DNA of 61,038 bases, the filler included. It is 4 parts of 4 records of this genome, joined end to end, with 100 filler letters (N's around TTAATTAATTAA, not from the genome) between each part and the next. Parts side by side here need not be neighbours in the genome. Positions count along the whole stretch, not along the records: positions 18,082 to 44,714 come from SRR31156797_13021; 3 more parts are not named here. One strand, given 5' to 3'. Under the pieces are notes generated by a model. The model had not been told where the DNA came from and searched no databases. It saw only the letters and a list, made by a program, of their open reading frames with translations. The translations under genes were made by a program, and so were the position numbers. Shown piece after piece: positions 28,992 through 49,828 of this stretch; position 1 is the stretch's first letter; each line of letters opens with the position of its first letter.

Positions 28992-28993
28992 TT

Positions 28994-31900: not shown

Positions 31901-34687
31901 GCTTTTCCGGCATTGATTCAAAATCTGGATGCGGTTATCTCCAAGAATGCCAAAAGAGCGGAATTCCAACTCAAGAGTCATTGCGTTTATTGCCGATGGT
32001 TCAACTGCTGCCATCAAGAAGCCTTGAACCGGGAAGAGATTCAGTTTTTACCGAACCTGACACCCGGACAGCTGGAGAGACTGAGAGCCCTGAACATCAA
32101 AAACATAAAGCAGGCGATTCAATGGCTGGAGGCCCCGAAAACCGACCCGGCCTCCATACCGCCTCACACGGACCAACAACTGAAAGCCAAAATCGACGCC
32201 GTCTCAAAACACCACATTCTGCTGAAAAACAAATCTACGCGTCTTTTTCCAACCAACATCTCGGTATCCACCATTCTCTACGCAATCCCCGGACCGCATA
32301 GCCGGACCCTGGGGCTGCGCGCAGTAGACGACAAAGGTAATGAGGGAACAGTCCGCACCTGGGAGATGCAAACGGACGGCAACAACAGGGAATCGGCATG
32401 GCATGATTTCGTAAATGTTCTTTTTGCCATCTGGAACCGAGCCATTCAAAAGGGCAAGGGACCGCACGTATTTTCCTTCGGCGGCAAAACACCGTCCCTA
32501 CTTCTCAAATGGGCAGGGGAAATGGGAAGATCGGCGGAATATGAATGGATCGCGGACATGGTTCAAAACCACTGGACCGATCTTCGCCGGGTTTTCAGGT
32601 CCCATTTCACACTCCCCATCCCCGGGGAGCTCACCCTCTATTCCCTGCACCATATCCTGGGCCTGGGCCCCGCTATCAAAAGGCCCTCAAGTCTGTTTCA
32701 CGGGGACAGGCATGAGATTGGACTGAAAGAAGCGCTGATGCTCTGCGGCAACCTGAAAAACTGGCTTTTGGGCCGCCTTGTGAGCCATCGACGGCAAGAA
32801 GGGTGGAAAACGGGGAAGGAAAATGAAGATCCATCCCGATCATATATCCAATTTGTGGAAGAACAGCAACGCTTGAAGCAGGAAGACATCTTGAAGTTGC
32901 AAACATATTCCCTGAAGGAGCGGGTGGAACGTTTCAGGGCCATGGGGCCGATCCGCTTTACGGGAAAAGAATTGGATCATGAAGGAAAATTCCGGTACAA
33001 CTTTTCCATAAGCCACAACCACGGCGCAAGCAAATTCCGGGAAGGGGATTTTTTAAAACTGGCGCATCAAGGGATACCTGATCTTCAAAACGGGTTTTCC
33101 GTTATTCTGAACCGGTACGCCCCAACCGGGAAAACCCTCTCCATCGGCTCCCGGCAGGGACACCTGGCCTTAAACCGACGTATTTCATATTCCCTGGAGG
33201 AAGACGCGGAGGATTGGACCGCCCCCAAACTGAATCACGCGGTTAAAGCCGTTCTGGGCCGGGAAGCACATCCATTCTCACGCTTATTGCGGGGAAACGG
33301 CGCTCGCACACAACATCAAAGCGCCCTAACCTGGATAGGAAAATGGCTCGCACAAAACAAATCCATCGTCGGACTCAATACGGCCCAAAGACGGGCCATG
33401 GAACTCCCTTTTTCCCATGGGCCGGGTCTCATTGACGGTCCTCCCGGAACCGGGAAAACCCATCTTCTGGGCTGGATGCTGATGGCGCTCATCCTCCACG
33501 CCCATGAATCGGGAAAACCCTTGCGCATTGCGCTCAGCGCCCTGACCCACCAGGCCATCGACAACGCACTTGAAAAGGTGGCGCAATTATTGAAGCGGTT
33601 CAACCTCCGCGGCTTTCCCGCACCGTTGATCAAGTGGGGCGATCCCGGTGATTCTGAAAAGGACAATGATGATCTCGGTGTTGAAACATCCAATGATCCG
33701 GAACATATTCTGAGGCGGCCATATCTGATTCTCGGCGCCACAGGATACGGGCTCTACCGCCTTTTTGACAGCCGCAACGGCCGTTTCCCGCCGTACTTTG
33801 ACTGGATGGCCCTGGATGAAGCCTCACAGATGCTGGTTCCCCAGGCGGCCCTGACCCTGGCCTACGGAAAGGGAAATTATCTTTTTCTGGGGGATATTCA
33901 ACAGTTGCCTCCCATTGTGCTGGGCCATGATGAAAGGGAAAACGAAACAGACCTATCACCGAACGGAAAACCGGTGGACGTTCGAAAATCGGTCCTTGAG
34001 CATCTCTTTCAGCATTACGGCGCCGAAAATCGCATCCGCCTGAATGTCACCTACCGGATGAACCGAGAACTCTGCCGGTTTCCGAGCCGCACCTGGTACG
34101 ACGGCGACCTTCACCCCGCCCCTGAAAACGCAAAATCGAGACTCGTGTTGAAAGGGACAATTTCCGACAACCCGATAGACCGGCTCATCGACCCGGATCG
34201 ACCCGCAACCCTCGCAATCATGGACCATCACCGGCATCATCAGGAATGCGAACCGGAAGCCGACCTCATTGCCCGCATCGCCTCCCGAATGATCATCCAT
34301 TTCGCCGTTCATCCGCGGCAGATCGGTTTGATCTCCCCCCATCGCGCTCAAAACAACCTCATCGCAGCCCATCTTTCCAGTCTGCTTGAGGGATCGGGCC
34401 ATGAACTTCCCCTCATTGATACGGTAGAGCGGGTTCAAGGCGCGGAAAAAGACGTCATTATTTTCGGGTTCACCACATCGGATCGGGACCATATCACGTC
34501 CGGGTTCTTAAACAATCCCAATCGATTTAATGTGGTCATGACCAGGGCGAGGAAAAAGCTCATCGTGATCGGCAGCAAGGTTTTTTTCTCCACCATTCCA
34601 AACCGGGAAAAAGAACTCGAAAATAACGCCTGCTTCAAGGAATTTTATGAGCACTGCAAGAAAGAGGGAAATCTCTTTTTTCTTTGA
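28994..34687 (+). CDS. Fusion of Lhr-like SF2 helicase, Cas4/RecB-like PD-(D/E)xK nuclease with Fe-S cysteines, and Upf1/Dna2-like SF1 helicase
   Basis: SF2: GTGTGKT, PTRAL, TTPESL, DEVH, SAT, TSTLELGIDVG, QRIGRA. Nuclease: C...GIPDL...GEFKS...QVAFY...CVYCRWFNCC. SF1: GPPGTGKT, DEASQ, GDIQQLPP, YRM, TVERVQGAEKD, RFNVVMTRAR. Start set at TTG 28994, 2 nt after the upstream stop. Confidence 0.88.
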   Translation: MDSPLLKLPNTFRAFYGAFPSLFPFQLQTIEPILQGRDLILRSGTGTGKTEAVLAPCLERVFMSKGVDRLVYVVPTRALAFDLKRRLAPIITPRLGLGLGVRTGDIKRKGGRTPHIMITTPESLDVLLGSRNPDLREFVSRANMAVIDEVHPLVHQYRGRQLALVLKRLERRTGRLLQKIALSATIADMDIIARFFDFSSTTVHLSENVCKEIVPHLVHLKNEDEELTALFDDLYRFFQYRKILIFANSRSACDRLFALLGNKGCFSGACGLHYSNLKPKERRAVERNFRRNPHALCVATSTLELGIDVGDVDAVVLYEPPDSVSAFLQRIGRANRRVEKTFFWGICRGVKAGEQLTRFLGLLDLAEKGEVEKPLPRKLHSVLGQQTVSCLYEKQRISPGAMKDLFPEESHALDNIFKTMEKTGWLSRGSVNGMFQGGWQYHNSLFEYGIWSNFPPAEEDYSLELSKKVIADIPRAVVDQLEPGDRVNLAGKRLCIAEIIHARGAGRVLAVPSDRTDSKEIFWLGPANQVSYEVAQSVREVLKSSSPSEKGLFSRTRLLLEQERKKMRDAVILKNGIEVVLNPNGFYRYLTYMGSVGNLILRWTIRYHLLVSGEEDVFVASDAVGVDCSHLIDFEKLSLPLQKEDLISWTRRNFKVLKASFPLNRFCSILPETLHMAEMADFLFDERVLNAFLHYHEASSTIRSGSFDFFEREHHGDKGDTPAPIEIPATGQPLLDLAKACGKPVPEVSLDFRAHSNRPLTGGILADYFRHLQCERFLRLHFVPAHLPPASQAPLDAVTDERIKAGRQFEATVMIHLRNNGATLVSITERDATGNFRSMELRHGETIEGLKKLMETPVGESSGPRYLSQGLLRENGLLSDVDGIGIPDLIRVSREKEIHVLTVGEFKSSPSPRFHHKWQVAFYAFLLNKMMGEQKINGTISNRGFLLLPAQKDAGKIVEYAFDLNPYLSAFPALIQNLDAVISKNAKRAEFQLKSHCVYCRWFNCCHQEALNREEIQFLPNLTPGQLERLRALNIKNIKQAIQWLEAPKTDPASIPPHTDQQLKAKIDAVSKHHILLKNKSTRLFPTNISVSTILYAIPGPHSRTLGLRAVDDKGNEGTVRTWEMQTDGNNRESAWHDFVNVLFAIWNRAIQKGKGPHVFSFGGKTPSLLLKWAGEMGRSAEYEWIADMVQNHWTDLRRVFRSHFTLPIPGELTLYSLHHILGLGPAIKRPSSLFHGDRHEIGLKEALMLCGNLKNWLLGRLVSHRRQEGWKTGKENEDPSRSYIQFVEEQQRLKQEDILKLQTYSLKERVERFRAMGPIRFTGKELDHEGKFRYNFSISHNHGASKFREGDFLKLAHQGIPDLQNGFSVILNRYAPTGKTLSIGSRQGHLALNRRISYSLEEDAEDWTAPKLNHAVKAVLGREAHPFSRLLRGNGARTQHQSALTWIGKWLAQNKSIVGLNTAQRRAMELPFSHGPGLIDGPPGTGKTHLLGWMLMALILHAHESGKPLRIALSALTHQAIDNALEKVAQLLKRFNLRGFPAPLIKWGDPGDSEKDNDDLGVETSNDPEHILRRPYLILGATGYGLYRLFDSRNGRFPPYFDWMALDEASQMLVPQAALTLAYGKGNYLFLGDIQQLPPIVLGHDERENETDLSPNGKPVDVRKSVLEHLFQHYGAENRIRLNVTYRMNRELCRFPSRTWYDGDLHPAPENAKSRLVLKGTISDNPIDRLIDPDRPATLAIMDHHRHHQECEPEADLIARIASRMIIHFAVHPRQIGLISPHRAQNNLIAAHLSSLLEGSGHELPLIDTVERVQGAEKDVIIFGFTTSDRDHITSGFLNNPNRFNVVMTRARKKLIVIGSKVFFSTIPNREKELENNACFKEFYEHCKKEGNLFFL

Positions 34688-36425: not shown

Positions 36426-37019
36426 GTGAGGACGAAGTTGGCCCCTTTGACGGATGAACAACTTGTAAAAAAATGCAAGCGCGGATTTCAAAAACGGAAG
36501 CATTGGGATGTTCTGATTCTTCGTTATGACAAATACGTAAAGGAAATCGCCCGAAAAAGGTTGTCTGACCCGGAACCGGTTAAGGACATTGTGCAGGATA
36601 CTTTTTTTAAAGCTTTTAAGGGGCTAGGAAGTTTCAGGGGAGACTGCAGCTTCAAGACCTGGCTCTCCGTAATCGCCGTAAGGCTTTGCAGCAGTTATCA
36701 GAGGGATGCAGCAAGAAACCGTGAACGATTTCCTTTCTCCTTTGAGGATGAAAAAGTTAAAACAGACAAAATTTTCACTGAAAAGCGAGAAAAAGATACC
36801 CTTAAGCAATTGCTCAACAAGGAAGAAAAAATGATGGTGAGATCCGCATTAAAGGAGCTTTCAAAGGCCCATCGAGAGACCATCACCTTATGGAGCGAGG
36901 GATTTTCCTATGAGGAAATTGCAGAACTCATGGGGACCTCCACAAAAACCGTCGGCTCCAGAATCTATTACGCCAAGATTAAAATCAGGGAAATGTTGGT
37001 AAGGAAGGGCTTTTTCTAA
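36426..37019 (+). CDS. ECF sigma-70 factor
   Basis: DEQLV, DIVQDTFFKAF..L.SFRGDCSFKTWL, region 4 EGFSYEEIAELMG....TVGSRI. Confidence 0.92.
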   Translation: MRTKLAPLTDEQLVKKCKRGFQKRKHWDVLILRYDKYVKEIARKRLSDPEPVKDIVQDTFFKAFKGLGSFRGDCSFKTWLSVIAVRLCSSYQRDAARNRERFPFSFEDEKVKTDKIFTEKREKDTLKQLLNKEEKMMVRSALKELSKAHRETITLWSEGFSYEEIAELMGTSTKTVGSRIYYAKIKIREMLVRKGFF

Positions 37020-37071
37020 CTGAAAACGAAGTTCCTTAATTTATAGGGATACCAAAAAGAGGACGAAACCC

Positions 37072-37557
37072 ATGAAAAATAAATGTGAAGAGATGGCGCC
37101 CCTCATAAGCGCCTACCTTGACGGAGAAAGCACGAAGAGCGACAGACGGGAGGTTGAAGGGCATTTGGCGTTATGTGAGGATTGCCGGAAACTGGCCCGC
37201 GAACTGGATATGGCGGGGCAATTTATTAAAGAAACCCTTTTTGAAAATGCCGAATCCGAATGGCGCCCCGACTTTGTTGATGAAGAGAGAAAGACGCCGA
37301 CCGATATTTGGGGTCCTATCAGGGAGCGAATAAAAAAGCTGATCGGAAAACCCCTTGTCTGGGCGCCGGCAGCAGTTGCGGCGGCTGCAATGGTCCTTAT
37401 GGTGTTCACATTTCCTTTTGAGGATTCAAAAGCGCCGTTTGAAGTGAGCAAAGTGGAATCGGTTTTCAGCCGAAGCGGGAAGGTCATGATCCTTCAGACG
37501 GGCAAAACCGGCGAACCGATTATCTGGATACTCCCTGAAAAAAGCACATCAGGATAA
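37072..37557 (+). CDS. zf-HC2 membrane-anchored anti-sigma factor
   Basis: CEEM..LISAYLDGE...HLALCEDC, one TM segment, short periplasmic tail. Confidence 0.9.
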   Translation: MKNKCEEMAPLISAYLDGESTKSDRREVEGHLALCEDCRKLARELDMAGQFIKETLFENAESEWRPDFVDEERKTPTDIWGPIRERIKKLIGKPLVWAPAAVAAAAMVLMVFTFPFEDSKAPFEVSKVESVFSRSGKVMILQTGKTGEPIIWILPEKSTSG

Positions 37558-37626
37558 AGGTGAATCAATGATTCCGGAATTCTCAACCTTTCCCGCTACG
37601 GTTTAAAATTTCTGGAAGGAGGTTTC

Positions 37627-38091
37627 ATGATGAAACGCAATACGGCGATTAAAATTACTGTTGCAGCTTTATTCATATGCCTGCATTTTCTAAGCCCTTC
37701 GTTTGCCGTCGCTTTTTCAGGGCTTAAGGCAAGGGTGGAGGTCATAAAGGCGGATCGAAATTCAAACAGGGTGGATTCTGAATTAAAAGATCTTGTAAAA
37801 GACCTGGCCCCGGTCCTGAATTATTCCGGTTTTTCCCTTATCAAACAAGCGGTTATTCATCTGGCGCCCGATAATACGGGGTCGGTTATTTTACCCGACC
37901 ACCGAATTCTTGAACTTCAGTTTCTGGGTTTCAAGGATCAACAGGCCCGACTTTCAGTTCGCATTCTGGAAAAAGGAAAAGAGACATTTCGCACAATTCT
38001 TCTATTGGTGAACAAAGGAAACATTCTGATCGGCGGTCCCCCATACGAAAAGGGCGTTCTTCTGCTGCGCGTTGGCGGGGAATTCAAGTAA
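37627..38091 (+). CDS. Exported protein of unknown function
   Basis: Signal peptide ending AVA. The mature domain is similar to the C-terminus of the 43331 lipoprotein. Confidence 0.75.
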   Translation: MMKRNTAIKITVAALFICLHFLSPSFAVAFSGLKARVEVIKADRNSNRVDSELKDLVKDLAPVLNYSGFSLIKQAVIHLAPDNTGSVILPDHRILELQFLGFKDQQARLSVRILEKGKETFRTILLLVNKGNILIGGPPYEKGVLLLRVGGEFK

Positions 38092-38204
38092 GGCTCCTGA
38101 CAAACGGGCGCCATAACACCTGCATGGGAAAAGCGCTTTCCTTTTTCACCCCTGCCCCACCACACAAGTCCATTTTAAAAAAAACTACAGATTGATTTGA
38201 AGAA

Positions 38205-38231
38205 AACCAACGTTCCCCGGTCTATCTCTAA
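38205..38231 (+). promoter_or_regulatory. Second putative ECF promoter
   Basis: AACC-N17-CTCTAA, same spacing as 36389-36415. Confidence 0.4.
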
Positions 38232-38359
38232 AAGAGCGGTTTAAGGACTTACGAACCGGGTGGGAAACCCACAGCTTTTAACGGTGGTTCTTCGCATCGC
38301 CCGTTTTTTCAGTTGAACAAAAGAAATCAATAAATCCATTGAATGGGGAGGGCAAAATC

Positions 38360-38719
38360 ATGAAGAAATTTCTGGCTTTGACAATCGGTCTTGTTCTGTT
38401 AGCGGGCGTCTGTGGAACCGCCATGGCCGGCTCTGAAAATAGATACCGATGGGAAGGCGCGATCATCGGCGCCGGCGCATTGCTGCTGCTCAATGAAATC
38501 CTCAAACAACCGCAGTGCGAATACCGTGCATCGGGATATGCACCCAGACGGTGTGGACATTGGGAAAGCAGAAGACACTGGATTCCGCCAAAATATAGGG
38601 AAGCCTGGTGCGAGGGGTATTATGATAGGAGACATCGATGGATTCCAGGGCGTTGGACCAGGGTTAAGGTTAGAGATGGACATTACAGAACAACACGGGT
38701 CTGGATAATGTGTCGATAA
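38360..38719 (+). CDS. Small exported Arg/Trp-rich protein (YXWGXW-like repeats)
   Basis: Signal peptide ending AMA, GAIIGAG, repeated GHW/HWIPP/WCEGYY/WIPGRW/GHY. Start ATG 38360. Confidence 0.7.
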   Translation: MKKFLALTIGLVLLAGVCGTAMAGSENRYRWEGAIIGAGALLLLNEILKQPQCEYRASGYAPRRCGHWESRRHWIPPKYREAWCEGYYDRRHRWIPGRWTRVKVRDGHYRTTRVWIMCR

Positions 38720-38787
38720 ACCACTGCAACATCTGTCGCGTTTCGAACAGCATTTCAAAAATCTAAAACAATAAAGGAGGATCAACA

Positions 38788-39672
38788 ATGAAAAAACCAG
38801 TGTTTTTATTTGCCGCCGTCTTTTTAATCGGCATTCCGGGGTTCGTCAACGCTTCCCAGGGGGTGGCCATTCAAAGGATTATCACCAATGCCCGGTCCGA
38901 ATTGGGTCAACTGGCCGACTCCGGCAAGGCCAGGGAGATCGCCCGGTTGATGCAAAAATTCGATCAACAGTACGGAACCTGGAGCAATTCCTGCGGGGCA
39001 GGAGACGCCTTCGACCCTGAAAGCGCCAGCGATGCCTGCAAGGAAATGGCGTCGCAAATGCGGGAAACGGGAATCTCCCTTTACGGCAAACTTTCCGAAT
39101 ACCTTCCGGACGTGGCGGCCAGATATGAACAGGGCGCCCGGTCGGCCCGAAGGATCGTCGAAATCCGTGCCCTGGACAAAACGCCCGCGGCCCTGTATCG
39201 CGCCAGCATGGACGGAATCGCGGAGGCCCCCAAATTGGGAGGGACCGCTTCCGGAGATGCAGGCAGCCCCTTTGACGTTGAGATGGACGATTTTCCGGAT
39301 CCCACCGACAAGATGTTTACAGTCCTTGAAAAACTGGTGCCGGACTTCGGCAAGGAGCTCCCCCAATCGGTCAGGGCCGGCAATACGCAGATCACCATGA
39401 CAAAGAAGGCCAAACGGGCGCGCTATCTTGCAGAGCGTTTCCGAAAAGCGAAACTTGTTCTGGAATCACAGCGAAATTACGGGGAAATTGTCTTCAACGT
39501 CACAAAGGCCGTCAACGCCATGCCCCAGGTCTTTGGAATTCAGTATACCGGAACGCGGCTCACGGCCAGGCCCAATCAAAAGGTACTGGAATACTACCGT
39601 TCCGGGAAAACCGACGGACCGGCAACGAAAAAGAATAAACGCCCGAGCGGCGGCTTTGAGCCACGCTCATAA
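38788..39672 (+). CDS. Exported hypothetical protein
   Basis: RBS AAGGAGG, signal peptide, one Cys pair, 294 aa. Confidence 0.75.
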   Translation: MKKPVFLFAAVFLIGIPGFVNASQGVAIQRIITNARSELGQLADSGKAREIARLMQKFDQQYGTWSNSCGAGDAFDPESASDACKEMASQMRETGISLYGKLSEYLPDVAARYEQGARSARRIVEIRALDKTPAALYRASMDGIAEAPKLGGTASGDAGSPFDVEMDDFPDPTDKMFTVLEKLVPDFGKELPQSVRAGNTQITMTKKAKRARYLAERFRKAKLVLESQRNYGEIVFNVTKAVNAMPQVFGIQYTGTRLTARPNQKVLEYYRSGKTDGPATKKNKRPSGGFEPRS

Positions 39673-39706
39673 ATCATACATTTACACGGATAAGGAGGAA
39701 GAAGCT

Positions 39707-40282
39707 ATGCGGTATCATGACGGTATATATAAGGTTATCCTTTTGTTGGGATTTCTTTCGGTTGTTCTTTTTACAACAGGGTGCGGCAAAAAGCAGCCTG
39801 TTCACACGGAACCACCATCGCCCGGGCTGACGTCCATACACCAGATTGATTCCTTCGACCCTGAACAGGCCTGTCGCCAGGCCCTGGAAGTTATCAACAA
39901 CAATCCGTACGGACAGGAGTTTTTTGAAAAGACCTTCGCCCGTGTCGTGAACCGGTGCAACAATCATAAGGCGGCGGTCAATGCCGACATTATATGGAAC
40001 CATCTGGTCATCCCCCTGAGACAAAGTGGAAAGGTTCCGCCGGATCTGGCCAAGGCCACCTGGAATTGCTACTTTTCCCGGCAGTTTGTCAGTCTGCCGG
40101 ACATGGGACCGATCACCCATTATTGTAACAGTCTTGCCGACATCAAAAACAGCCTGGAAAAGGAATATCAACTCAAAAAAAGAGGTTTTGAGATCTGTCG
40201 ACAAGGGAGCGTGGAACCGCATTTTCTGAATGCCATGTATGTCTACAATACCATGTGGGCGGCTTGTCACGGCACTGAATGA
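39707..40282 (+). CDS. Cys-rich lipoprotein of unknown function
   Basis: RBS TAAGGAGG before ATG 39707, lipobox FTTGC, six further Cys. Confidence 0.75.
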   Translation: MRYHDGIYKVILLLGFLSVVLFTTGCGKKQPVHTEPPSPGLTSIHQIDSFDPEQACRQALEVINNNPYGQEFFEKTFARVVNRCNNHKAAVNADIIWNHLVIPLRQSGKVPPDLAKATWNCYFSRQFVSLPDMGPITHYCNSLADIKNSLEKEYQLKKRGFEICRQGSVEPHFLNAMYVYNTMWAACHGTE

Positions 40283-40378
40283 AGATCCCACTGAAAATAC
40301 GATAGGAGAAACGCGGGCCTTGCCGCCGCCAATGGAAAGAATGCGGAAATTTGGCCCATTCGGTAATGGAGAAACATT

Positions 40379-41020
40379 ATGAAAACCCTTTTATATTTCG
40401 CCGTGTCCCTGGTTCTCGCTATTGTCCTATGCCTTTTTCTGATGACCACCGGAATTTTGAAGGTAAACCGCGAAAGCCTATGGGCTAACATCGAAACCGT
40501 GAAAAATAGTGCGTTTTCAGTCCTAACGAGGACAGAGAATGTTATACGGAACAAAAACATCAGTGCAAACCAAAGCCGGAAGGTCCCGCTCAAAACCTCT
40601 GCATCGCCTCCAACCGATGATCGGATACTATCCTCAAAACCGGGACCCTATACCGATAGAAACAGGCTCCATGAACGCGCACTTGAATTCTTGTCCGGAA
40701 AACAAGGCCATGTAGATCCTGACGTGGAAGAACAATTCACTGAATTCCTGCTGCAGGAGCTTGCGCTTAACCAGGAGGATGCCGAAAAATTTGTGCGCAT
40801 GTGTTTCTGGAAGAACTTCGTTACCTTGCAGGAACAATGGCAGTCCACGGACGGGGACAGAATGGGTGAGGCGTTCAGACGTGAAAAAGAACTGAAAAAG
40901 GCGGGATTCGCCGCAAAAGGCCTCCGTCTCATGCCGACTGAAATCCAGCATGCCGAAGCTCGCCTGGAAGAGCTCCAAGGCTCATCTTCCCATAGAAAAA
41001 TCCAGGGTGATAAGTCATGA
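40379..41020 (+). CDS. Membrane-anchored hypothetical protein
   Basis: N-terminal TM segment, RBS GGAG, ATGA overlap with the next gene. Confidence 0.7.
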   Translation: MKTLLYFAVSLVLAIVLCLFLMTTGILKVNRESLWANIETVKNSAFSVLTRTENVIRNKNISANQSRKVPLKTSASPPTDDRILSSKPGPYTDRNRLHERALEFLSGKQGHVDPDVEEQFTEFLLQELALNQEDAEKFVRMCFWKNFVTLQEQWQSTDGDRMGEAFRREKELKKAGFAAKGLRLMPTEIQHAEARLEELQGSSSHRKIQGDKS

Positions 41021-41574
41021 AGTCCGTGCTCGGAATCTTCCTGCTTTCTTTGTGCTGGTGTACCCTCTTTCTGATTCTAGGCGTTTTTTCAGGTTGGATC
41101 ACCATATCCGCAAGGGCTCCGTGGCTCATGGATCCTGCCGCCTTTCTCTACAGACATCTGAGATTGTCAACGGTTCCGTTTGGGTGCCTCTTTCTTGTCT
41201 ACGGCTACTTGATATGCAAAGTAAAGCGTTTGCTGAACCGGGAAAACACAACCCTTTCGCAACTCACCTATTATGATCGGTTGCTGAACACCACCATCTC
41301 CACCTTCTTCGGAGTGGGCGTCATCTGGACGGCCATCGGAATGGAAACGGCCTTGATGCAGGCCCTGGGGAGCGTTTCCCAAGGCCGCACGGCAGTGGAA
41401 TCCCTAGGCGCATTGGGGCTTCTGGAGCGGCTTGTCAACGGCGGCCTTTTGCTGGCCTTGAGTACGACGGTCTTCGGCGGGGCATGCGGATATCTGCTCA
41501 GGATATTAAAGATACTATTGCTCGGCGAAGGGTGGGACCGCCTTGTCATTGAGGAGGCGGGAAGAGATGGATAA
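41017..41574 (+). CDS. MotA/TolQ/ExbB-like membrane protein
   Basis: Four hydrophobic segments. FFGVGVIWTAIGM and GGLLLALSTTVFGG parallel the G..GT..GM and G...AL.TT..G motifs of the family. Confidence 0.65.
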   Translation: MKSVLGIFLLSLCWCTLFLILGVFSGWITISARAPWLMDPAAFLYRHLRLSTVPFGCLFLVYGYLICKVKRLLNRENTTLSQLTYYDRLLNTTISTFFGVGVIWTAIGMETALMQALGSVSQGRTAVESLGALGLLERLVNGGLLLALSTTVFGGACGYLLRILKILLLGEGWDRLVIEEAGRDG

Positions 41575-42304
41575 GGTAAGGTTTCTCATTGGAGAGGCGT
41601 CTGGAGAAAACCACGTCCTGGAGACCGACATCATGCGGTTTGTGGCCATCATCGGCATGGTATTATGGATTATCTTTGCCATCGCAAAAAGTATCCCCTT
41701 TCAGGTCCCAAAAACGGATTCGCCCCTCCCAGGCCCACCCAAAAAAGAATACCTTACAACACAACCGCCATTGCCCGTGGTCAAAAAAACGCCTGTCAAG
41801 GAAAAAAAGCAGGGCCCGGCCCCGGAGGATAAAAAGAAAAAGCATAAGCAGACCAAGACTCCGGGAATCGAGCAAAGACCGCCTAAAGGGATCCACATTC
41901 AGTTTGGCGCTCTTGAGGACCTGCTGGAATTGATGGCCGGGCGCAAGGTGCGTATTTTCTGCCGTGCCCGGGCCACGGGATTTGATCTCCTTTTTGAGGG
42001 CCTCGCTCTTGGAGGGTCAGTAACTTTCCATAGCACGAAAGACCTTCCAAGCAAATTATGGGAAATCAAAAGCGGCAAAGACCATGCCTATTTTCTTGGT
42101 TTGGTCACAAACGCATATCCAGTCATCAGGACTTTTCCCCTGAAGCAGGTTTTGTTGGCCTTCACGGACAAAGCTTTGGAGGAAAGTGTAGAGAAAACTC
42201 TCGCCAGTCTCAGAAAGGACGGGAAGGAAGGGATCATTTCAATCGGCAGAAGGGGAAGAATTTCCTACCAAAGCCAAGGCGGTAAAACCGAAAAATTTGA
42301 ATAA
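41567..42304 (+). CDS. Single-TM partner with intramembrane Asp (MotB/TolR/ExbD-like N-terminus)
   Basis: LETDIMRFVAIIGMVLWIIF, then a Pro/Lys-rich linker and an unknown periplasmic domain. ATG 41567 after GAGGAGG overlaps the previous gene. Confidence 0.55.
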   Translation: MDKVRFLIGEASGENHVLETDIMRFVAIIGMVLWIIFAIAKSIPFQVPKTDSPLPGPPKKEYLTTQPPLPVVKKTPVKEKKQGPAPEDKKKKHKQTKTPGIEQRPPKGIHIQFGALEDLLELMAGRKVRIFCRARATGFDLLFEGLALGGSVTFHSTKDLPSKLWEIKSGKDHAYFLGLVTNAYPVIRTFPLKQVLLAFTDKALEESVEKTLASLRKDGKEGIISIGRRGRISYQSQGGKTEKFE

Positions 42305-42422
42305 AACGTCTTTTCAAACGTCTATCTTTACCGGAAGATGCACAAATGTTCAATTTCCAAACGGAAGGGTAGGAAACCCAAGCTTCCGGTCTTTGAACCA
42401 CCAAAAAATAGGAGAAAGCCAA

Positions 42423-43244
42423 ATGAAACATAAAATTTTTTTAAGGCATTTGCTTTTGCCGGTTTTCCTTCTGCTTGTTTTTTCCGGATCCAAAACCGTG
42501 TCCGCAGCCCTTGGGCCTGATCCGGCGATTCGAGCGGAGCTCAAAAAGGTGTTTGAACAAGCGCCCCAGGTGGGAGGATACCCCTATCTGAACCTGATAG
42601 AAACCGCCGCAAAGCTCTACGGATTGCCGGTTCCCTTTATCCTTGCCGTCGTTCGGGGCGAGTCGTTTTTTGACCCCAAGGCAATCAGCGTAAAAGGCGC
42701 CATTGGGCTCATGCAGGTCATGCCGACCACCGCCTCTGGTTACGGAGTGGCATCGGAACGGCTTATGGATCCCGCCGTTAATATCGATGTGGGAGTCCAT
42801 TATCTGTCGGATCTGTATCGGCAACTGGAGGATCCCTACCTGACACTGGCGGCCTATTACTGCGGGCCGGGCCCCGTAAACAAGGCAAATTTCACCCTTC
42901 GCAGCGATTGCGATGAGTATGTACGCTATATCCATTCTCATCTTCAAAAGATCCTTTCCGGCGCCGAAGCCGGGGTCCCGAAGCCTGAAAAGAAATTCCG
43001 CCATTTTGTAATTGCCGGGTTCGACAGCTTCCTGGACGCGGAGAATTTTTCAGCATATCTGTCTAAAAAGATGCCCCGAACACAGTTGGACCTGTTCCGG
43101 CGTGAAGTCGTTCATCCTGATCACGTCCGTTTTGAATACCAGATTCTGGCAGGGTACGGAAAAGATGAAGATACGGAACAAATCTGCAACCATATACAAA
43201 GGGTCACGGGATTTTCACTGTGCAATGGAAAACAAACCCATTGA
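42423..43244 (+). CDS. Exported lytic transglycosylase (SLT domain) with small C-terminal domain
   Basis: AVVRGESFFDPKAISVKGAIGLMQVMP, NIDVGVHYL, LAAYYCGPG, signal peptide. Start ATG 42423 after AGGAG. Confidence 0.88.
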   Translation: MKHKIFLRHLLLPVFLLLVFSGSKTVSAALGPDPAIRAELKKVFEQAPQVGGYPYLNLIETAAKLYGLPVPFILAVVRGESFFDPKAISVKGAIGLMQVMPTTASGYGVASERLMDPAVNIDVGVHYLSDLYRQLEDPYLTLAAYYCGPGPVNKANFTLRSDCDEYVRYIHSHLQKILSGAEAGVPKPEKKFRHFVIAGFDSFLDAENFSAYLSKKMPRTQLDLFRREVVHPDHVRFEYQILAGYGKDEDTEQICNHIQRVTGFSLCNGKQTH

Positions 43245-43330
43245 ATCCATTTGGGCCGCAATATGTTCTTTCATGGCGCCACTTGAAACGGATGGATGCA
43301 CATGGAAACGCAATCAACCGGGGAGGAAAA

Positions 43331-44714
43331 ATGAAGACAATATCCGCTCTTTTTCTTGCCGCAATACTGGCGCTGACGGTTTCGTCATGCGCGGGCGTAA
43401 AAACGCATAAAATGCCGGCGACCGCCCGAACCTTGCCGGAGACGGTTCCGGAGAGCTTCCATTTCAGGGTGAACGACCCTGAAACATGCGGGTATCTCAA
43501 TGGGGTTGACCCTGATGCGCTCCCGGCTGATCAGCGTCTTGAAGTCGTCCTCCTCCGGGAATTGGCGGCCGTTTCATCGGAAAATGAGACCGCCGGGTCT
43601 TTTGACCGTCTCTGGAACGATCATGAGGAGCTGAGAAACCTTGTTCGAAACCCCCATAAAAGAAGGGAATTCGTCCAACCAATGGCCATCGCCTATTATC
43701 TTCTTTCCACGGCGCCGGCCTCTTCCTGGCAGGCGGAAACCGCGGAACGGCTCTATCGGGAAGGTCTTGCTCAGGCAACCCCGGCCCAGGTAAAGGGGTA
43801 TGGGCTTCACTTCTATACGTTGGCGCTGTTGAAGAAGGGCAAGTTCGATGAAGCGCTCCCTTTGCTTCATAATCTTAAATATTTTACCAGTCCCGAAATA
43901 TATCTTCAAGACCTTACAACAGCCCTGGATTATGCACTGAACAGCCGTGCGGCCAAACCGGCATGCGGCATCATGGCTTCCATCTGCGAAAACGGGATTC
44001 AACACAATCTTGAAATACCGGACAACAGGCTGGAGAAGGCCATCATGACCCTTAAGGCAATGGGAGCCCTCAGAACGGCGCGGGAGGAGTTGGCGCCCTT
44101 GGTTCGAGACAATCCCGGATTGCAGCGTTATTCGTTCGTTCAAATGTTTATTCAAACACCGGAAGGCTTTCATAAGCAACCGTCCAAAAAAGAAGAAAAT
44201 GGTAATCTCGCTCGAATCAAAACTCAGGACAGACCATTGAAACCTTCAAAACAGACATTCCATAAACAGGTGACCATTGCCCGCAATCAGCGGGAGACCG
44301 CCAGGGGCGTGCGGGTGGAAATCCAGGTGATCAGCGCCTGCCGCGGCCCGGATTATGTGGATCCTTTACTGTTAGATGCCGTCAAGGCCCTAAAAGAAAC
44401 GGTTCATTTTTCCAGTTTCAGATTAATAGCCGAGAAGCTTTTGGAAATTCCCTTTGGCGAAGAGAAAAAAATGACCATATCCAAAAAAAGGAAATTAAAA
44501 ATAATGCCCCGCTATTCAACCGGAAGATCCTGCCGGATTCAATTAGTGATAGAGGAAAACGGAAAACAGACTTTCTCGACCGTTCTGGAGACCGTAGACG
44601 GGGGTACCGCCATTATCGGAGGGGCCGTGGATGATGGACGGATGCTGCTGTTGCGGTTAAGGAACTTCATCTTGCCGTATATCCGGTCCCCTGAAAAATT
44701 AAAAATCACATCAA
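43331..44714 (+). CDS. Lipoprotein with TPR-like helical region and a C-terminal domain shared with 37627-38091 (3'-partial)
   Basis: GGGAGG-ATG 43331, lipobox VSSC. No stop before the contig end. Confidence 0.7.
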
Positions 44715-44814
44715 NNNNNNNNNNNNNNNNNNNNNNNNNNNNNNNNNNNNNNNNNNNNTTAATTAATTAANNNNNNNNNNNNNNNNNNNNNNNNNNNNNN
44801 NNNNNNNNNNNNNN
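44715..44814. other. Artificial contig linker
   Basis: N44-TTAATTAATTAA-N44. Confidence 0.98.
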
Positions 44815-44816
44815 AA

Positions 44817-46145
44817 TTGTTCAATTTGGAAACAGAACCGCTTTTAATTTTAGCCGCAACTGGCTCTTGGAACATTCAGCTACATCCAGTAACCTTTGGA
44901 ATTATAATTTCTATTGTAACTGTATTATTGCTTTTGTTAAGCTCAGCCTTAATTAGTGGATCAGAAGTAGCTTATTTTTCTCTATCCGCTTCTGATAAGG
45001 AAAGTTTAAAGGAAAAAGGAAAAACCAATGAACGGGTTCTACAACACCTGAATAATCCTGAAAAATTACTGGCAACTATACTGGTTGCCAATAATTTTGT
45101 AAATGTTGGCATTATTATACTCACTGCATTCATTACCAATAACCTGATTTCTTTTGCTGATGCTCCTGCCCTGGAGTTTATTTTCCAGGTAGTTTTAATT
45201 ACTTTCTTTCTTCTACTGTTTGGCGAGATTTTCCCAAAAGTTTATGCTACTCATTTTGCTTTACGTTTTGCCCGTTTTATGGCTTTGCCGCTACATACAC
45301 TTGAAAGTATATTCCGCCCGGTTAATGCCATTCTTATTTATTCCACCGGTTTTGTGAACCGCCGTTTGCAAAAACACCGGAAAAACATATCAATGGATGA
45401 AATATCACAGGCTCTTGAACTTACATCAGACCAGGAACTTTCGGAAGAAAAGGACATACTCGAAGGCATTGTAAAGTTTGGGAATAAAGACGTAAGCGAA
45501 ATTATGACACCACGGGTTGATGTGGTTGCCCTGGATACAAAAACAAGTTTTAAAGATGTTCTTCAGGTGATCAACGACTCGGGTTACTCACGTATACCGG
45601 TTTACATCGATTCTTTTGACAATATTGCCGGAATCCTATACATCAAGGATATCCTTCAGCATAGCCATAAGGCCAACTCATTTAAATGGCAAACACTTAT
45701 ACGCCCGCCATTTTATATCCCCGATACAAAAAAGATACGGTCATTGCTTGAAGAATTCCAGAAAACCAAAGTACACCTTGCCATCGTTGTTGACGAATAT
45801 GGAGGAACATCGGGTATTGTAACACTTGAAGACATTTTAGAAGAGATTGTTGGTGATATTACTGATGAATTTGATGCAGAAGAGAATTTCTTTTCAAAAA
45901 CTGCCGACAACACCTACATCTTCGATGCCAAGGTTTTACTCGGCGATTTCTACAAAGTTGTAAATTGCGACGATACTGTATTTGATGACATAAAGGGAGA
46001 CGCCGACACACTTGCCGGGCTGATACTTGAAATAAAAGGGGAAATACCTACGTTAAAAGAAGAAGTAAAATGCAAACATTTTACATTTACCATTAATGAG
46101 GTTGATAACCGTAGAATTAAACAAATCAAGGTGGTTGTAAATTAA
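44817..46145 (+). CDS. gldE: Gliding motility-associated protein GldE (CNNM/CBS/CorC domains)
   Basis: SGSEVAYFSL, LATILVANNFVN, GEIFPK, CBS pair GYSRIPVY and VVDEYGGTSG. Adjacent to gldD. Confidence 0.88.
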   Translation: MFNLETEPLLILAATGSWNIQLHPVTFGIIISIVTVLLLLLSSALISGSEVAYFSLSASDKESLKEKGKTNERVLQHLNNPEKLLATILVANNFVNVGIIILTAFITNNLISFADAPALEFIFQVVLITFFLLLFGEIFPKVYATHFALRFARFMALPLHTLESIFRPVNAILIYSTGFVNRRLQKHRKNISMDEISQALELTSDQELSEEKDILEGIVKFGNKDVSEIMTPRVDVVALDTKTSFKDVLQVINDSGYSRIPVYIDSFDNIAGILYIKDILQHSHKANSFKWQTLIRPPFYIPDTKKIRSLLEEFQKTKVHLAIVVDEYGGTSGIVTLEDILEEIVGDITDEFDAEENFFSKTADNTYIFDAKVLLGDFYKVVNCDDTVFDDIKGDADTLAGLILEIKGEIPTLKEEVKCKHFTFTINEVDNRRIKQIKVVVN

Positions 46146-46257
46146 TTCTCTGGCAGGGTAATTCCCCATTAAATAAATAAGAATATTTTTAAAAAGGAGA
46201 ATGATTACATTTTCTGAACTCAAGAGATTCCTTTAGAAAAAAACAAATTTTTAACAA

Positions 46258-46842
46258 ATGAGATTCAACTACTTACTCATTGTATTAATAATTTTGGTTG
46301 GTTGCAGCGAAAACTACACTCCTAAACCCAGGGGATTCTTCCGTATCGAATTCCCTGATAAAGATTATTCGCAATTGGAAGATTCGTACCCCTATTCCTT
46401 TGAAATACCCAACTATTCTGAAATACAAAAAGACCAAAGAAACAGGAACGAACCCTACTGGATAAATGTTGCTGTACCGGAGCATAATGTTGAGGTTCAT
46501 TTTTCTTATTACGACTTAAAATCAGGGGAACAAACACCTCGAGAACTACTCATTGAATTAATGGAAGAAACACGGTCTCTGGCCTACAAACACTCGATAA
46601 AGGCTGATGCAATAAACGAACAGGTTTTTATGAATCCGGGCAGAAAAGTATATGGCACCATCTATAAAATCGAGGGCAATGCGGCCTCACCAATGCAATT
46701 CTTTTTGACCGACAGCACAAAACATTTTTTGCGTGGCGCTTTTTATATCCGGGAAGTTCCGAATATTGATTCGCTAAAACCTGTTATTAATTTTTACGAG
46801 CCTGATATTATTCGAATAATTGAAACAACAAGCTGGAACTAA
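46258..46842 (+). CDS. gldD: Gliding motility lipoprotein GldD
   Basis: Lipobox LVGC, PKPRGFFRI, KH.IKADAI, GNAASPMQFFLTDSTKHFLRGA. Confidence 0.92.
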   Translation: MRFNYLLIVLIILVGCSENYTPKPRGFFRIEFPDKDYSQLEDSYPYSFEIPNYSEIQKDQRNRNEPYWINVAVPEHNVEVHFSYYDLKSGEQTPRELLIELMEETRSLAYKHSIKADAINEQVFMNPGRKVYGTIYKIEGNAASPMQFFLTDSTKHFLRGAFYIREVPNIDSLKPVINFYEPDIIRIIETTSWN

Positions 46843-47477
46843 TGCCCCTGGTTGATAAAATAGAAAATGAATATGGACTAATAGGCGTTTGGGAACTCAA
46901 AGAGTCGACTGACGAGCTACTTCGAAAGTATAAATTCCATCAGGAAGACCTTGAACGTTTAGAAACATTAAAACATGAAAAGCGTCGGAAAGAGTTTCTT
47001 GCTGCACGGGTATTAATCCAGTTACTTTTGCCTGATAATTCGGGCATCGAATACCAACCCAAAACAGGTAAACCATTTCTAAAAAACTCCGATTTGCATG
47101 TTAGCATTTCACATTCTGCAGATTTTGCCTGTGTTTTTATTTCTAAAAAAATAATTGGAGTTGACATTGAACAAACAAACCGAAACGTAGATCGAATTGC
47201 CAAACGTTTTTTGCACCCGACAGAAATTGAATTTATTGCCACATTAAAAAATCAGCAATATGCCAGGATAATGATCTGGGCGGCCAAAGAAGCTATTTTT
47301 AAAAGCACTAAAGAACAAGGAATCTTGTTCAATAAACAAATCATAATCGATCCTCTCCATCAAAACAACAGGAATGTATTTACCGGACAACTAAGAATAA
47401 AAAAGCAAATAATAAAATACCAACTCTATTACAGAGACTACTCAAACAATGTACTGGTATATTGTGTTAAGCTATAA
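46842..47477 (+). CDS. 4'-phosphopantetheinyl transferase family protein
   Basis: GKPFL, SISHS, GVDIE, WAAKEAIFK. Confidence 0.88.
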   Translation: MPLVDKIENEYGLIGVWELKESTDELLRKYKFHQEDLERLETLKHEKRRKEFLAARVLIQLLLPDNSGIEYQPKTGKPFLKNSDLHVSISHSADFACVFISKKIIGVDIEQTNRNVDRIAKRFLHPTEIEFIATLKNQQYARIMIWAAKEAIFKSTKEQGILFNKQIIIDPLHQNNRNVFTGQLRIKKQIIKYQLYYRDYSNNVLVYCVKL

Positions 47478-47544
47478 AATATACAGGGGGACAAAATAAC
47501 TGTGTCTTCCATTATCAATACTAACTCTTATTAGCGAAAACCAT

Positions 47545-49038
47545 ATGAAAAAAGCAGAAGATCAAATCTTAATCATTTTCGGGGCTTCCGGAGATTTGAC
47601 AAAACGCAAACTTATTCCTGCACTTTTTGACCTCTACCAACAAAACTTACTTCCCGATAAGTTTGCAGTTCTTGGAGCCTCCCGCTCTGCCCTTTCCGAT
47701 GAAGACTTCAGAAACAGGGCCAATGATTTCTTGCCAAAAGATGAAAAACTTGATCGTTTCAGAAAAATGCTTTTCTATGAACCAATACAAAACAATTCTG
47801 CTGAAGATTTTGCACCTCTAAAAAATCGTCTAAATCAACTGTCTACCGATCTTGAAATAGAACCAAACTACATTTTTTACCTTTCAACACCTCCTGCGCT
47901 ATATCCTGTTATTCCAAAATTATTGCATGAGAATGGACTCACAAAATCCGAATCTTATTTCAGGCGGTTAATCGTTGAAAAACCCTTTGGTACAGATCTA
48001 AGCTCAGCCCAGGATCTAAACATACAACTACTTAACTATTTTACAGAAGAACAAATTTACCGCATCGATCACTACCTTGGAAAAGAGACCGTACAAAACA
48101 TGCTGGTTACCCGTTTTTCTAACGGTATATTTGAGCCATTGTGGAACAGGAGGTATATTGAACGCGTTGAAATTTCTTCGGCAGAAAGCCTGGGAGTGGA
48201 AGGAAGAGGTGGTTATTACGACCACTCCGGGGCAATGCGCGATATGCTCCAGAATCACCTTTTACAGGTTGCAGGATTTGTTGCCATGGAACCTCCGGTT
48301 GTGGTTGAGGCCAATGCCATTCGTAATGAGATACTGAAGGTATTTCAGTCCATTAAACCCATTCAGGAAAATGAGGTTCCCAGGTATGTTATTCGTGGAC
48401 AGTATACGGCATCAAACATTAGAGGAAAAAAGGTAGTTGGTTACCGGGAAGAACCGGGAGTTGCAAAATTTTCAAGAACAGAAACCTTTGTTGCGTTGAA
48501 GTTCTTTATCGATAACTGGCGCTGGGCAGGTGTTCCATTTTATATTCGGACAGGAAAAAAACTTCCAACCCGGGTTACCGAGATTGTCATTCATTTTAGA
48601 AAAGTACCTCATCATTTATTTGGAAATCAAGGACAACACAACAACAATCAATTGATCATTCGTATTCAACCAGACGAAGGAATTTTGTTAAAATTTGGCA
48701 TGAAAACTCCAGGAGCTGGTTTTAAAGTGCAAACTGTTAATATGGACTTTCACTACTCTGATTTGGCCGACAAAAAAGTTCCTGCAGCCTATGCCCGACT
48801 GCTTCTAGACAGTATGCAGGGCGATGCCACTTTATATGCACGCGGTGATGCTGTTGAGGCTGCCTGGAAATTTGTACAACCAATTATTAACGCCTGGGAG
48901 ACCAATCCTGAAATTCCGATATATGGCTATCCGGCCGGATCATGGGGGCCTGAAGACTCTGACAAGCTGATTTCCAATGGCCAATGGCGCTATCCCTGTA
49001 AAAATTTAACTAACGATGGTTTGTATTGTGAATTATAA
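47545..49038 (+). CDS. zwf: Glucose-6-phosphate 1-dehydrogenase
   Basis: GASGDLTKRKL, EKPFG, RIDHYLGKE, RDMLQNH. Confidence 0.97.
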   Translation: MKKAEDQILIIFGASGDLTKRKLIPALFDLYQQNLLPDKFAVLGASRSALSDEDFRNRANDFLPKDEKLDRFRKMLFYEPIQNNSAEDFAPLKNRLNQLSTDLEIEPNYIFYLSTPPALYPVIPKLLHENGLTKSESYFRRLIVEKPFGTDLSSAQDLNIQLLNYFTEEQIYRIDHYLGKETVQNMLVTRFSNGIFEPLWNRRYIERVEISSAESLGVEGRGGYYDHSGAMRDMLQNHLLQVAGFVAMEPPVVVEANAIRNEILKVFQSIKPIQENEVPRYVIRGQYTASNIRGKKVVGYREEPGVAKFSRTETFVALKFFIDNWRWAGVPFYIRTGKKLPTRVTEIVIHFRKVPHHLFGNQGQHNNNQLIIRIQPDEGILLKFGMKTPGAGFKVQTVNMDFHYSDLADKKVPAAYARLLLDSMQGDATLYARGDAVEAAWKFVQPIINAWETNPEIPIYGYPAGSWGPEDSDKLISNGQWRYPCKNLTNDGLYCEL

Positions 49039-49074
49039 TCTCTATTTTGGTTGAACGCATTAAACTACAGCTAT

Positions 49075-49806: not shown

Positions 49807-49828
49807 AGGATGAAGACAATTGTTTAGT

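Follow-up and report, generated by a model that had tools for sequence, protein, structure and literature searches.

To our knowledge, ion-driven 5:2 motors are the only known route by which Gram-negative bacteria bring energy to the periplasm and the outer membrane. Each newly understood class of these motors (flagellar, Ton, Tol, gliding/type IX secretion system (T9SS), and Zorya) opened a field. The present work concerns a cluster of eleven genes, g01 to g11, located at 36426-44714 of a 61,038-base window (the whole stretch of DNA that was analysed). Part of this cluster is a conserved, undescribed cassette, which may represent a new TolQR-like, ion-driven module for envelope or peptidoglycan remodelling, equipped with new partners and a dedicated SLT lytic transglycosylase and, in this lineage, controlled by an extracytoplasmic function (ECF) sigma factor; we regard the chances for and against this reading as evenly balanced. 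For the gene pair g08/g09 taken by itself, a function as motor is probable.

The nearest published concept is that of the TPH-vWA transducers. According to their description (Williams-Jones et al. 2025, PMC12204202), these systems combine a TolQ-like gene with a protein that carries an Asp-bearing TolR/ExbD-like 'transpore helix', a linker, and a globular periplasmic domain; since this protein carries its own linker and globular domain, it was proposed to act as a direct force transducer. PMC9389320 and PMC12204202 further present a conserved mid-membrane Asp on a partner with a single transmembrane (TM) segment as the hallmark of MotB, TolR, ExbD, and AglQ/S, and this Asp, placed inside a ring of Thr residues, as the common motor signature. 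The genes of the cassette on the contig studied here are the following.

g05, 38788-39672, plus strand: exported core protein of 294 aa, with invariant C69 and C84 (alignment A3)
g06, 39707-40282, plus strand: core lipoprotein of 191 aa, with an invariant lipobox Cys26 (alignment A4)
g07, 40379-41020, plus strand: protein of 213 aa with an N-terminal membrane anchor, whose stop codon overlaps the start of g08 by 4 nt
g08, 41017-41574, plus strand: four-helix membrane protein of 185 aa, candidate motor A-subunit (TolQ/ExbB/ZorA-like)
g09, 41567-42304, plus strand: candidate motor B-subunit, with an alternative TTG start at 41543
g10, 42423-43244, plus strand: exported SLT-family lytic transglycosylase with an extra C-terminal domain of about 70 aa
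g11, 43331-44714, plus strand: lipoprotein of at least 461 aa, whose reading frame runs into the contig end; its N-terminal part is helical and its C-terminal domain similar to g03

The architecture of this cassette appears to match that of the TPH-vWA transducers. It differs in that the output domain is not a vWA domain and has no match in the PDB, in that the A-subunit falls outside PF01618, and in its companions, namely g05, g06, the SLT enzyme, and g11 or, in other variants of the cassette, a protein designated gX.

Similar to Tol-Pal, the cassette pairs a multi-helix inner-membrane protein with a single-TM protein in which an Asp is conserved, and it has a long linker that spans the periplasm, lipoprotein and periplasmic partners, and a link to peptidoglycan processing. 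In contrast to Tol-Pal, no member of the TolQ, TolR, TolA, TolB, Pal, or CpoB families was found in the cluster with Pfam and NCBIfam; the long linker and the output domain are located on the Asp-bearing subunit itself and not on a third, TolA-like protein; g08 has one helix more at its N-terminus and no cytoplasmic domain; and an SLT enzyme is part of the cassette operon. The cassette is not a replacement for Tol-Pal, because all five genomes of relatives that were searched keep a canonical tolQ elsewhere, scoring above the cut-off and with tolB adjoining, and because the g08 profile finds a single copy in each of the five and matches none of their 9 to 12 PF01618 paralogues.

The cassette is likewise distinct from ExbB-ExbD-TonB, as neither an ExbD or TonB_C Pfam match nor a TonB-dependent receptor was found among the eleven genes. 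In a Woeseiaceae relative (locus L056, 5-4078), an exbB-exbB-exbD-tonB-TPR operon is located approximately 5-8 kb 5' of the cassette as a separate unit, and Pfam recognizes the genes of this operon and not those of the cassette. Searches for the gliding systems Agl/Glt and Gld/T9SS revealed no AglR/Q/S (PF01618/PF02472) and no GldL/M in g03-g09 or g11 (Pfam at E<=0.01, and relaxed scans of the relatives). The first-pass annotation of this DNA, made from the sequence alone, had described the system as of unknown type and had noted the absence from it of any TonB-dependent receptor, TolB/Pal, flagellar gene, or Zorya ZorC-E effector; with Pfam, NCBIfam, and PADLOC no TonB-dependent receptor, TolB, Pal, flagellar, or Zorya component was found among the eleven genes, and the cluster does not map onto Tol-Pal, Exb/Ton, Agl/Glt, or Zorya.

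Organization and conservation of the cassette

The window is comprised of four contigs, separated by spacers (N/ttaattaattaa) at 17982-18081, 44715-44814, and 55464-55563, with G+C contents of 0.25-0.37 (1-17981), 0.44-0.54 (18082-44714), 0.36-0.41 (44815-55463), and about 0.42 (55564-61038). The cluster corresponds to the last 8.3 kb of the contig at 18082-44714, whose G+C content of about 0.5 contrasts with 0.25-0.43 in its neighbours. As it sits at the 3' end of this contig, the end at 44714, already noted at first pass, is a real contig end, before which g11 has no stop codon. The contig has its relatives in the Desulfobacterales and may derive from an organism other than that of its bin-mates.

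The listing of open reading frames (ORFs) gives eleven genes at 36426-44714, all on the plus strand, and the starts of several of them were refined by means of signal peptides and of their relatives. Gene g08 overlaps g09 by 8 nt, in addition to the 4-nt overlap between g07 and g08. A Kyte-Doolittle scan displayed a hydrophobic N-terminal segment in nine out of the nine genes downstream of the anti-sigma gene g02, and lipobox-like Cys residues were read from the sequence in g06 (…FTTGC) and g11 (…VSSC), so that the eleven same-strand genes, the nine exported, membrane, or lipoprotein products, and the two lipoproteins of the first-pass annotation all stand. Matches to the Pfam, NCBIfam, and PADLOC libraries are limited to the sigma factor g01, the anti-sigma factor g02, and the SLT enzyme g10, with no family for g03-g09 or g11, and relaxed Pfam scans of 32 cassette proteins revealed no recurrent family. 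The profiles of g05 and g06 found no relative and no credible relative in the PDB, respectively. Conserved at the mature N-terminus of g05 is 'PTIxLFPT', a candidate box for beta-augmentation. Two candidate assignments for g05 were rejected: a single weak CATRA-C match (E 0.058) to one of its relatives, and DUF5045, the best named cluster in a protein atlas, whose score of 0.79 is below a useful level.

A genome scan with one genome per species gave 364 pattern matches, of which 350 encode a g08 relative, and the best 80 of these 350 loci (designated L001 and following) were analysed. Genes were counted with iterated local hidden Markov models over all ORFs, and the loci were divided by record title into 34 labelled Desulfobacterota and 46 others, the latter mostly Woeseiaceae, Halieaceae, Methylococcales, and other Gammaproteobacteria. 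The core of the cassette was found in the same order throughout (g08 in 80/80 loci, g06 and g09 each in 76/80, and g05 in 72/80) and in both groups. Among the other genes, an SLT enzyme is present in 57 loci, the sigma gene in 19, g07 in 10, g11 and g03 each in 8, g02 in 5, and g04 in none; the sigma gene, g02, g03, g07, and g11 are restricted to the Desulfobacterota, g07 and g11 moreover to the closest Desulfobacterales clade. Four loci lack g09, and in three of them a contig end interrupts the locus. The fourth (L009, 1-543), on a contig of a Desulfuromonadales metagenome-assembled genome, encodes no more than about 124 N-terminal residues of a g08 homologue (76% identity), next to which unrelated genes follow; it represents the remnant of a gene or else a chimeric assembly.

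Two variants of the cassette can be distinguished. Variant A, found on this contig and in L001-L013, has the order g05-g06-g07-g08-g09-SLT-g11. Variant B, found in the remaining loci, has the order g05-g06-g08-g09-gX-(c2)-SLT, which in the Halieaceae-type loci becomes gX-SLT-g05-g06-g08-g09. Here gX (50 loci) denotes a protein of about 500 aa that is either periplasmic or a lipoprotein and in some members has a DUF4384 domain, and c2 (20 loci) is a TM protein. No gX was found on this contig (E<=10) or in the closest clade (E<=1), and hhalign indicated no relation between gX and g11 (probability 4%).

The cassette is therefore more than a chance cluster, because g05, g06, g08, and g09 are syntenic in 72, 76, 80, and 76 of the 80 loci, respectively; the genes are thus co-conserved in order in other genomes, a point that the first-pass annotation had proposed to check by a neighbourhood search. 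Its picture of one eleven-gene cluster holds for this core, and not for g04, unique to this contig, or for g07 and g11, found only in the closest clade. An accidental grouping of unrelated exported genes behind a sigma/anti-sigma pair could be imagined from the lack of g04 relatives in the 80 loci and from the sigma genes being separable from the remainder in relatives, but the order g05-g06-(g07)-g08-g09 is kept in 72 to 80 of the 80 loci and in two phyla, genes overlap, and a promoter motif is held in common, which makes such an accident barely conceivable. A word search of open-access literature text found no description of the cassette.

The g08/g09 pair as a candidate motor

The search for g08 relatives returned 259 proteins at E<=1e-3 among 769 candidates, and none of the best 120 of these 259 carries a precomputed Pfam domain. 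Desulfosarcina ovata and Dissulfuribacter thermophilus are among the named species with a family member. Across 22 sequences of the g08 family, T105, S149, T150, and T151 do not vary; these residues lie in the last two helices. The structural model of g08 displays four long helices at a predicted local distance difference test (pLDDT) score of 80.5, and several hydrophobic helices are seen in its Kyte-Doolittle scan. Foldseek searches with this model gave E-values of about 1, and hence no significant match, with ExbB, ZorA, MotA, PomA, and TolQ among the top rows; motor A-subunits account for six of the top twelve structural neighbours among 48,161 chains, ZorA being the first. When g08 was compared by hhalign with 23 canonical MotA_ExbB proteins from the genomes of the relatives, a P of 0.0026 was obtained, ALSTT being aligned with 'Al-tTa-GL'. 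One member of the g08 family is named 'MotA/TolQ/ExbB proton channel domain-containing protein' in UniRef, which is a label of that source only, and the neighbours of g08 in the protein atlas are unnamed clusters apart from one MotA_ExbB cluster (score 0.87, rank 9), to be taken as a lead only. From fold, motif, and context we infer that g08 is homologous to the A-subunits of 5:2 motors.

The candidate B-subunit g09 is built from a short cytoplasmic N-terminus, one TM helix, a linker rich in Pro and Lys, and, at the C-terminus, an alpha/beta domain of about 135 aa. The hydrophobic segment covers residues 25-55 of the long ORF in the Kyte-Doolittle scan, and the helix spans 13-42. At the start of this helix, the motif LxTDxMRF contains L18, D21, M23, and F25, which are invariant in 30 g09 sequences (alignment A2). 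The linker varies in length and forms a coiled-coil in some relatives; the C-terminal domain is confidently predicted (pLDDT 94-98), and it found no match in the PDB. A single N-terminal TM helix with an invariant Asp, encoded by a gene that adjoins g08 in 76 of the 80 loci, is what would be expected of a motor B-subunit.

Several results weigh against a motor pair. Pfam finds nothing for g08 or g09, and the PADLOC models of ZorA and ZorB find nothing either. PF01618 matches none of 22 members of the g08 family at E<=10, and a six-frame search with this model in five carrier genomes, which finds the 9 to 12 paralogues in each, misses the g08 loci. The hhalign probability of g08 versus the canonical MotA_ExbB proteins is only 11.6%, its profile compared with the single ExbB of L056 gives no significant result, and the protein differs from ExbB, TolQ, and MotA by the additional helix at its N-terminus and by the absence of their cytoplasmic domain. 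The periplasmic domain of g09 matches no peptidoglycan-binding, TonB-C, or vWA fold. In addition, the g08 profile gave chance-level rows only against the PDB, and no ExbD (PF02472), MotB_plug, or OmpA-like Pfam match was obtained for g09, including relaxed scans of the relatives. A complex prediction with four copies of g08 and two of g09(1-50), a stoichiometry other than 5:2, scored 0.00 and gives no verdict either way. The MotA/TolQ-like and MotB/TolR-like pair of the first-pass annotation is thus confirmed by no family model and is carried by fold, motif, and context; similarly, the ion drive it proposed receives moderate support from the invariant Asp in the lone TM helix of the coupled g09, set against a g08 that is invisible to PF01618.

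The rank of ZorA as top structural neighbour of g08 also suggests a Zorya-like anti-phage system, in which a ZorAB-like envelope motor would detect phage attack and use either the wall-cutting enzyme or the sigma factor for its response; a defence cluster with BrxD/SngB-like and BrxHI/SngC-like genes, located at 25528-34687 directly 5' of the eleven-gene cluster, is in line with this. However, no PADLOC model, those for ZorA-E included, matched g03-g11 at E<=0.1, g08, with its 185 aa, has no long ZorA tail, g09 shows no ZorB peptidoglycan-binding domain, and no ZorC/D/E-like or other cytoplasmic gene or effector is encoded within g03-g11. The genomic context is stable: in the Woeseiaceae-type loci, genes for FeoB, an aminotransferase, a deoxynucleoside kinase, and a cation-efflux protein recur in seven to nine loci, and such a recurrent housekeeping context argues against a defence island. 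The single copy per genome (5/5) is typical of vertically kept genes. On this evidence an anti-phage role is highly improbable.

The upstream cluster itself looks like a system of the Shango or BREX-accessory type. It encodes two ATPases of the BrxD/SngB-like kind (26448-27749 and 27750-28991) and, at 28796-34687, a protein of 1963 aa with DEAD helicase, PD-(D/E)XK/Cas4-like nuclease, and AAA_11/AAA_12 domains, whose best PADLOC matches are BrxHI (2.7e-83) and SngC (4.8e-65). In front of the cluster stands a gene of 306 aa whose family is unclear.

Sigma factor, anti-sigma factor and predicted promoters

Four genes precede g05 on this contig.

g01, 36426-37019, plus strand: ECF (group IV) sigma-70 factor of 197 aa (Pfam Sigma70_r2, 1.4e-13; Sigma70_r4_2, 2.4e-9)
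g02, 37072-37557, plus strand: anti-sigma factor with an N-terminal zf-HC2 domain (E 1.7e-10; 41.2 bits versus a cut-off of 22.2)
g03, 37627-38091, plus strand: exported protein of 154 aa with a signal peptide and no Pfam, NCBIfam, or PADLOC family
g04, 38360-38719, plus strand: small exported protein of 119 aa, rich in W, R, and H, with a good ribosome-binding site and a signal peptide

The first two genes encode an ECF (group IV) sigma factor and a zf-HC2 membrane anti-sigma factor. The former scores 96.7 bits against TIGR02937 (NCBIfam cut-off 42.9), and the latter displays by hydropathy one TM segment (approximately residues 93-117), followed by some 44 aa of periplasmic tail. Both share the standard domains of RpoE/RseA-type modules, whose autoregulation appears to be shared as well. 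The module differs from these in its regulon, which here would be an uncharacterised cassette, and in g03, which completes the triad and represents a new exported domain, present once more at the end of the lipoprotein g11 (alignment A5, which includes the orthologues that follow sigma and anti-sigma genes in L007 and L011). This shared domain hints at a sensing link between machine and regulator.

Linkage of these regulators to the cassette depends on the lineage. The sigma gene was found in 19 of the 34 Desulfobacterota loci and in none of the other 46, and in L007 and L011 the sigma/anti-sigma/g03 triad lies approximately 6 kb from g05. A homologue of g02, encoded by a 195-aa gene directly 5' of g05 (hhalign 99.4%), is found in 14 other Desulfobacterota loci, all of variant B, where a second sigma-like gene (about 254 aa) stands beside it. 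In Halieaceae-type loci (L039, 3752-5865; L028, L038, L060), an OmpR-type regulator and a HAMP histidine kinase are located directly 5' of gX-SLT-g05-g06-g08-g09; the cassette therefore seems to take on different envelope-signal regulators in different lineages. Pfam and NCBIfam thus bear out the sigma and anti-sigma genes that the first-pass annotation had placed at the head of the cluster, while the eleven genes do not form one conserved unit, the triad being linked only in the Desulfobacterota.

A repeated motif, TTTGAA(T/G)AA-N13-(C/G)GTCTA(A/T), with exactly 17 nt from TGAAN to GTC, occurs in three copies on the plus strand of the cluster.

P1, 36241-36268, plus strand: ECF-type motif TGAATAATATGGTCCCGTCCACGTCTAA, 157 nt 5' of g01, of the form TGAAY-17 nt-GTCNAW
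P2, 38198-38225, plus strand: ECF-type motif TGAAGAAAACCAACGTTCCCCGGTCTAT, 134 nt 5' of g04, a TGAAG variant
P3, 42298-42325, plus strand: ECF-type motif TGAATAAAACGTCTTTTCAAACGTCTAT, 97 nt 5' of g10 and overlapping the end of g09, of the form TGAAY-17 nt-GTCNAW

The sigma gene appears to be autoregulated from a promoter with a '-35 GAAC-like / -10 CGTC-like' layout, as ECF promoters typically have, and on sequence grounds P1-P3 are read as predicted promoters of an autoregulated ECF regulon. The layout of P1 (TGAAY-17 nt-GTC) matches sites before g05 and the sigma gene in relatives: the motif is located 43-96 nt before g05 in L001, L002, L003, L004, L007, and L011, including a TGAAG variant of the P2 type 60 nt before g05 in L003, and in L007 and L011, in which sigma gene and g05 are about 6 kb apart, it is also found 21 nt before the sigma gene. 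On the two strands of the loci (1.13 Mb), the strict pattern matches 15 times, and six of these matches fall at upstream positions of g05 or the sigma gene. The first-pass picture of a stress-induced complex headed by a sigma/anti-sigma pair is strengthened by this ECF-type motif before the sigma gene, g04/g05, and g10, and by its recurrence in relatives.

On the other side of the balance, the window contains five motifs versus 2.08 expected, a count reached by 9 of 100 shuffles and not significant alone; the relaxed motif score used a consensus built from the same sites; and no motif stands directly before g05 in this window. The weight of the motif hence comes from its position and its recurrence in relatives. 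A terminator-like hairpin (38283-38301; 38283-38310 with its T run) is furthermore located between P2 and the start of g04 at 38360; it may mark the end of the sigma/anti-sigma/g03 unit, act as an attenuator of P2 transcripts, or be there by chance.

The regulatory genes also bear on the question whether g08/g09 are a motor. The pair could be passive anchors or a sensor of the envelope state, the likeness of g08 to TolQ and ZorA being that of a generic helical bundle and the Asp of g09 serving another role, for example in helix packing or in signalling to the regulators. No sequence model sees a relation of the two proteins to motors, the cassette always stands beside an envelope-signal regulator in those lineages in which a regulator is linked, and the recurrence in g11 of the domain that follows the anti-sigma factor would fit a feedback or sensing circuit. 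Against this, a lone-TM acidic residue together with invariant Thr/Ser in the last two helices of the partner is the signature of all known 5:2 motors (PMC12204202), the high ranks of motor A-subunits among the structural neighbours would be hard to obtain by chance, and the Gammaproteobacterial loci mostly lack a linked regulator. We consider a non-motor pair quite unlikely.

Wall enzyme, accessory proteins and proposed function of the cassette

The product of g10 is by family membership an SLT (family 1) lytic transglycosylase (PF01464, E 4.5e-25, 87.9 bits versus a cut-off of 21.3), as stated in the first-pass annotation, and its activity is predicted. The translation displays GES…GLMQ…AYYCG, which we take to be the Glu-Ser, GLMQ, and AYYCG motifs of SLT enzymes. 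Its best NCBIfam match is a flagellar-assembly transglycosylase model, at the domain level only (88.8 bits versus a cut-off of 234). The C-terminal domain is conserved in the SLT enzymes of the cassettes and homologous to the C-terminus of c2 (hhalign 96.5%, E 8e-10; alignment A6); its profile gave chance-level rows only against the PDB. It resembles SPOR (PF05036) by eye only, through the order beta-alpha-beta-beta-alpha-beta, and this assignment is not supported: nine sequences gave no Pfam match at E<=5 and the PDB profile search contained no SPOR chain.

A dedicated SLT enzyme, kept in 57 of the 80 loci, would also suit a platform on which some surface structure or export route is assembled; the enzyme would serve solely to open the wall for a complex of g05, g06, g11, or gX, like the specialised transglycosylases of flagella and of type III and type IV secretion systems, and g08/g09 would energise or anchor the assembly instead of remodelling the wall themselves. 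The flagellar model among the matches of g10 and the constant company of large lipoproteins or periplasmic proteins (g11, gX) point in this direction. However, no ATPase, secretin, pilin, usher, or beta-barrel family was found by Pfam among the window genes and the neighbours in L007, L024, L041, L056, L001, and L011, and no candidate for a cargo or fibre subunit is conserved across loci, so that we rate such a platform as unlikely.

Despite the open contig end, g11 is essentially full length according to alignment A5. The g11/g03 profile found no relative in the PDB. In L001 (5130-7313) a single ORF of 727 aa joins the N-terminal part of g11 to a region with DUF6844, and in L007 (12154-15126) g11 is followed immediately by a gene for a DUF6844 protein. 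On this contig, too, a DUF6844 gene may therefore extend the cluster past 44714. The run of same-strand genes in L004 and L005 has g11 as its last member. The small g04, for which Pfam found only a weak WXXGXW match below the cut-off (E 0.0072), is specific to this lineage, and with no homologue in the 80 loci its reality as a gene is the least certain of the cluster.

Recurring exported proteins flank the cassette in Desulfobacterota relatives (L007, 2678-8382, minus strand; L011, 3034-7650; L024, 14280-18398; L016, 13846-16343). They include caspase (Peptidase_C14) or CHAT-TPR proteins with DUF4384, PEGA, or FGE-sulfatase domains, lipoproteins with FlgO/CsgG-like and DUF4384 domains, and FlgT_N-like, OmpA-TPR, LpoB-like, and DUF6844 proteins.

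Returning to the cassette as a TolQR-like module, the following mode of action can be proposed. The engine would be the translationally coupled g08/g09 pair, with g08 as a minimal and very divergent relative of the TolQ/ExbB/ZorA/MotA A-subunits that dispenses with a cytoplasmic domain, and g09 as the B-subunit, the invariant Asp of whose TM helix presumably binds the ion and whose linker would bear the periplasmic domain of unmatched fold. Ion flow via g08 would turn or pull g09, which in turn would pass the work to g05, a periplasmic protein with a disulfide, to the lipoprotein g06 and, in this clade, to g07 and to g11, likewise a lipoprotein, while g10 would cut the peptidoglycan locally. 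The overall logic may thus be that of a Tol-Pal-like trans-envelope or peptidoglycan-remodelling device, operating as the regulon of its own sigma factor g01, which the membrane anti-sigma factor g02 would hold in check. That ions drive the pair, that the products assemble physically, what the work is directed at, and that the function is trans-envelope or peptidoglycan-remodelling are all points that we infer.

In its most far-reaching form, to which we give somewhat less than an even chance, the proposal is that g08/g09 constitute an unrecognised class of 5:2 motors outside the present family models, which would then join the flagellar, Ton, Tol, gliding/T9SS, and Zorya motors as a further functional class. 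Its Asp subunit would span the periplasm with a new fold and power g05, g06, and g11 or gX together with an SLT enzyme of its own, in some 350 species of sediment Desulfobacterota and Gammaproteobacteria; in the present lineage it would be wired to an ECF sigma factor, with the g03 domain duplicated on g11 as a feedback sensor.

If true, this would add a compact motor class of six to seven genes, whose motor subunits are missed by current annotation models and whose output domain and partners represent new folds or families, accompanied by their own wall-cutting enzyme and regulator. New motor subunits with an enzyme and a regulator of their own would therefore offer an experimentally tractable entry point, with one invariant Asp, one sigma factor, and three predicted promoters as handles. 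Several hundred operons of 'hypothetical proteins' could be annotated, and the cassette would open the biological question of how sediment bacteria remodel or stress-proof their envelope.

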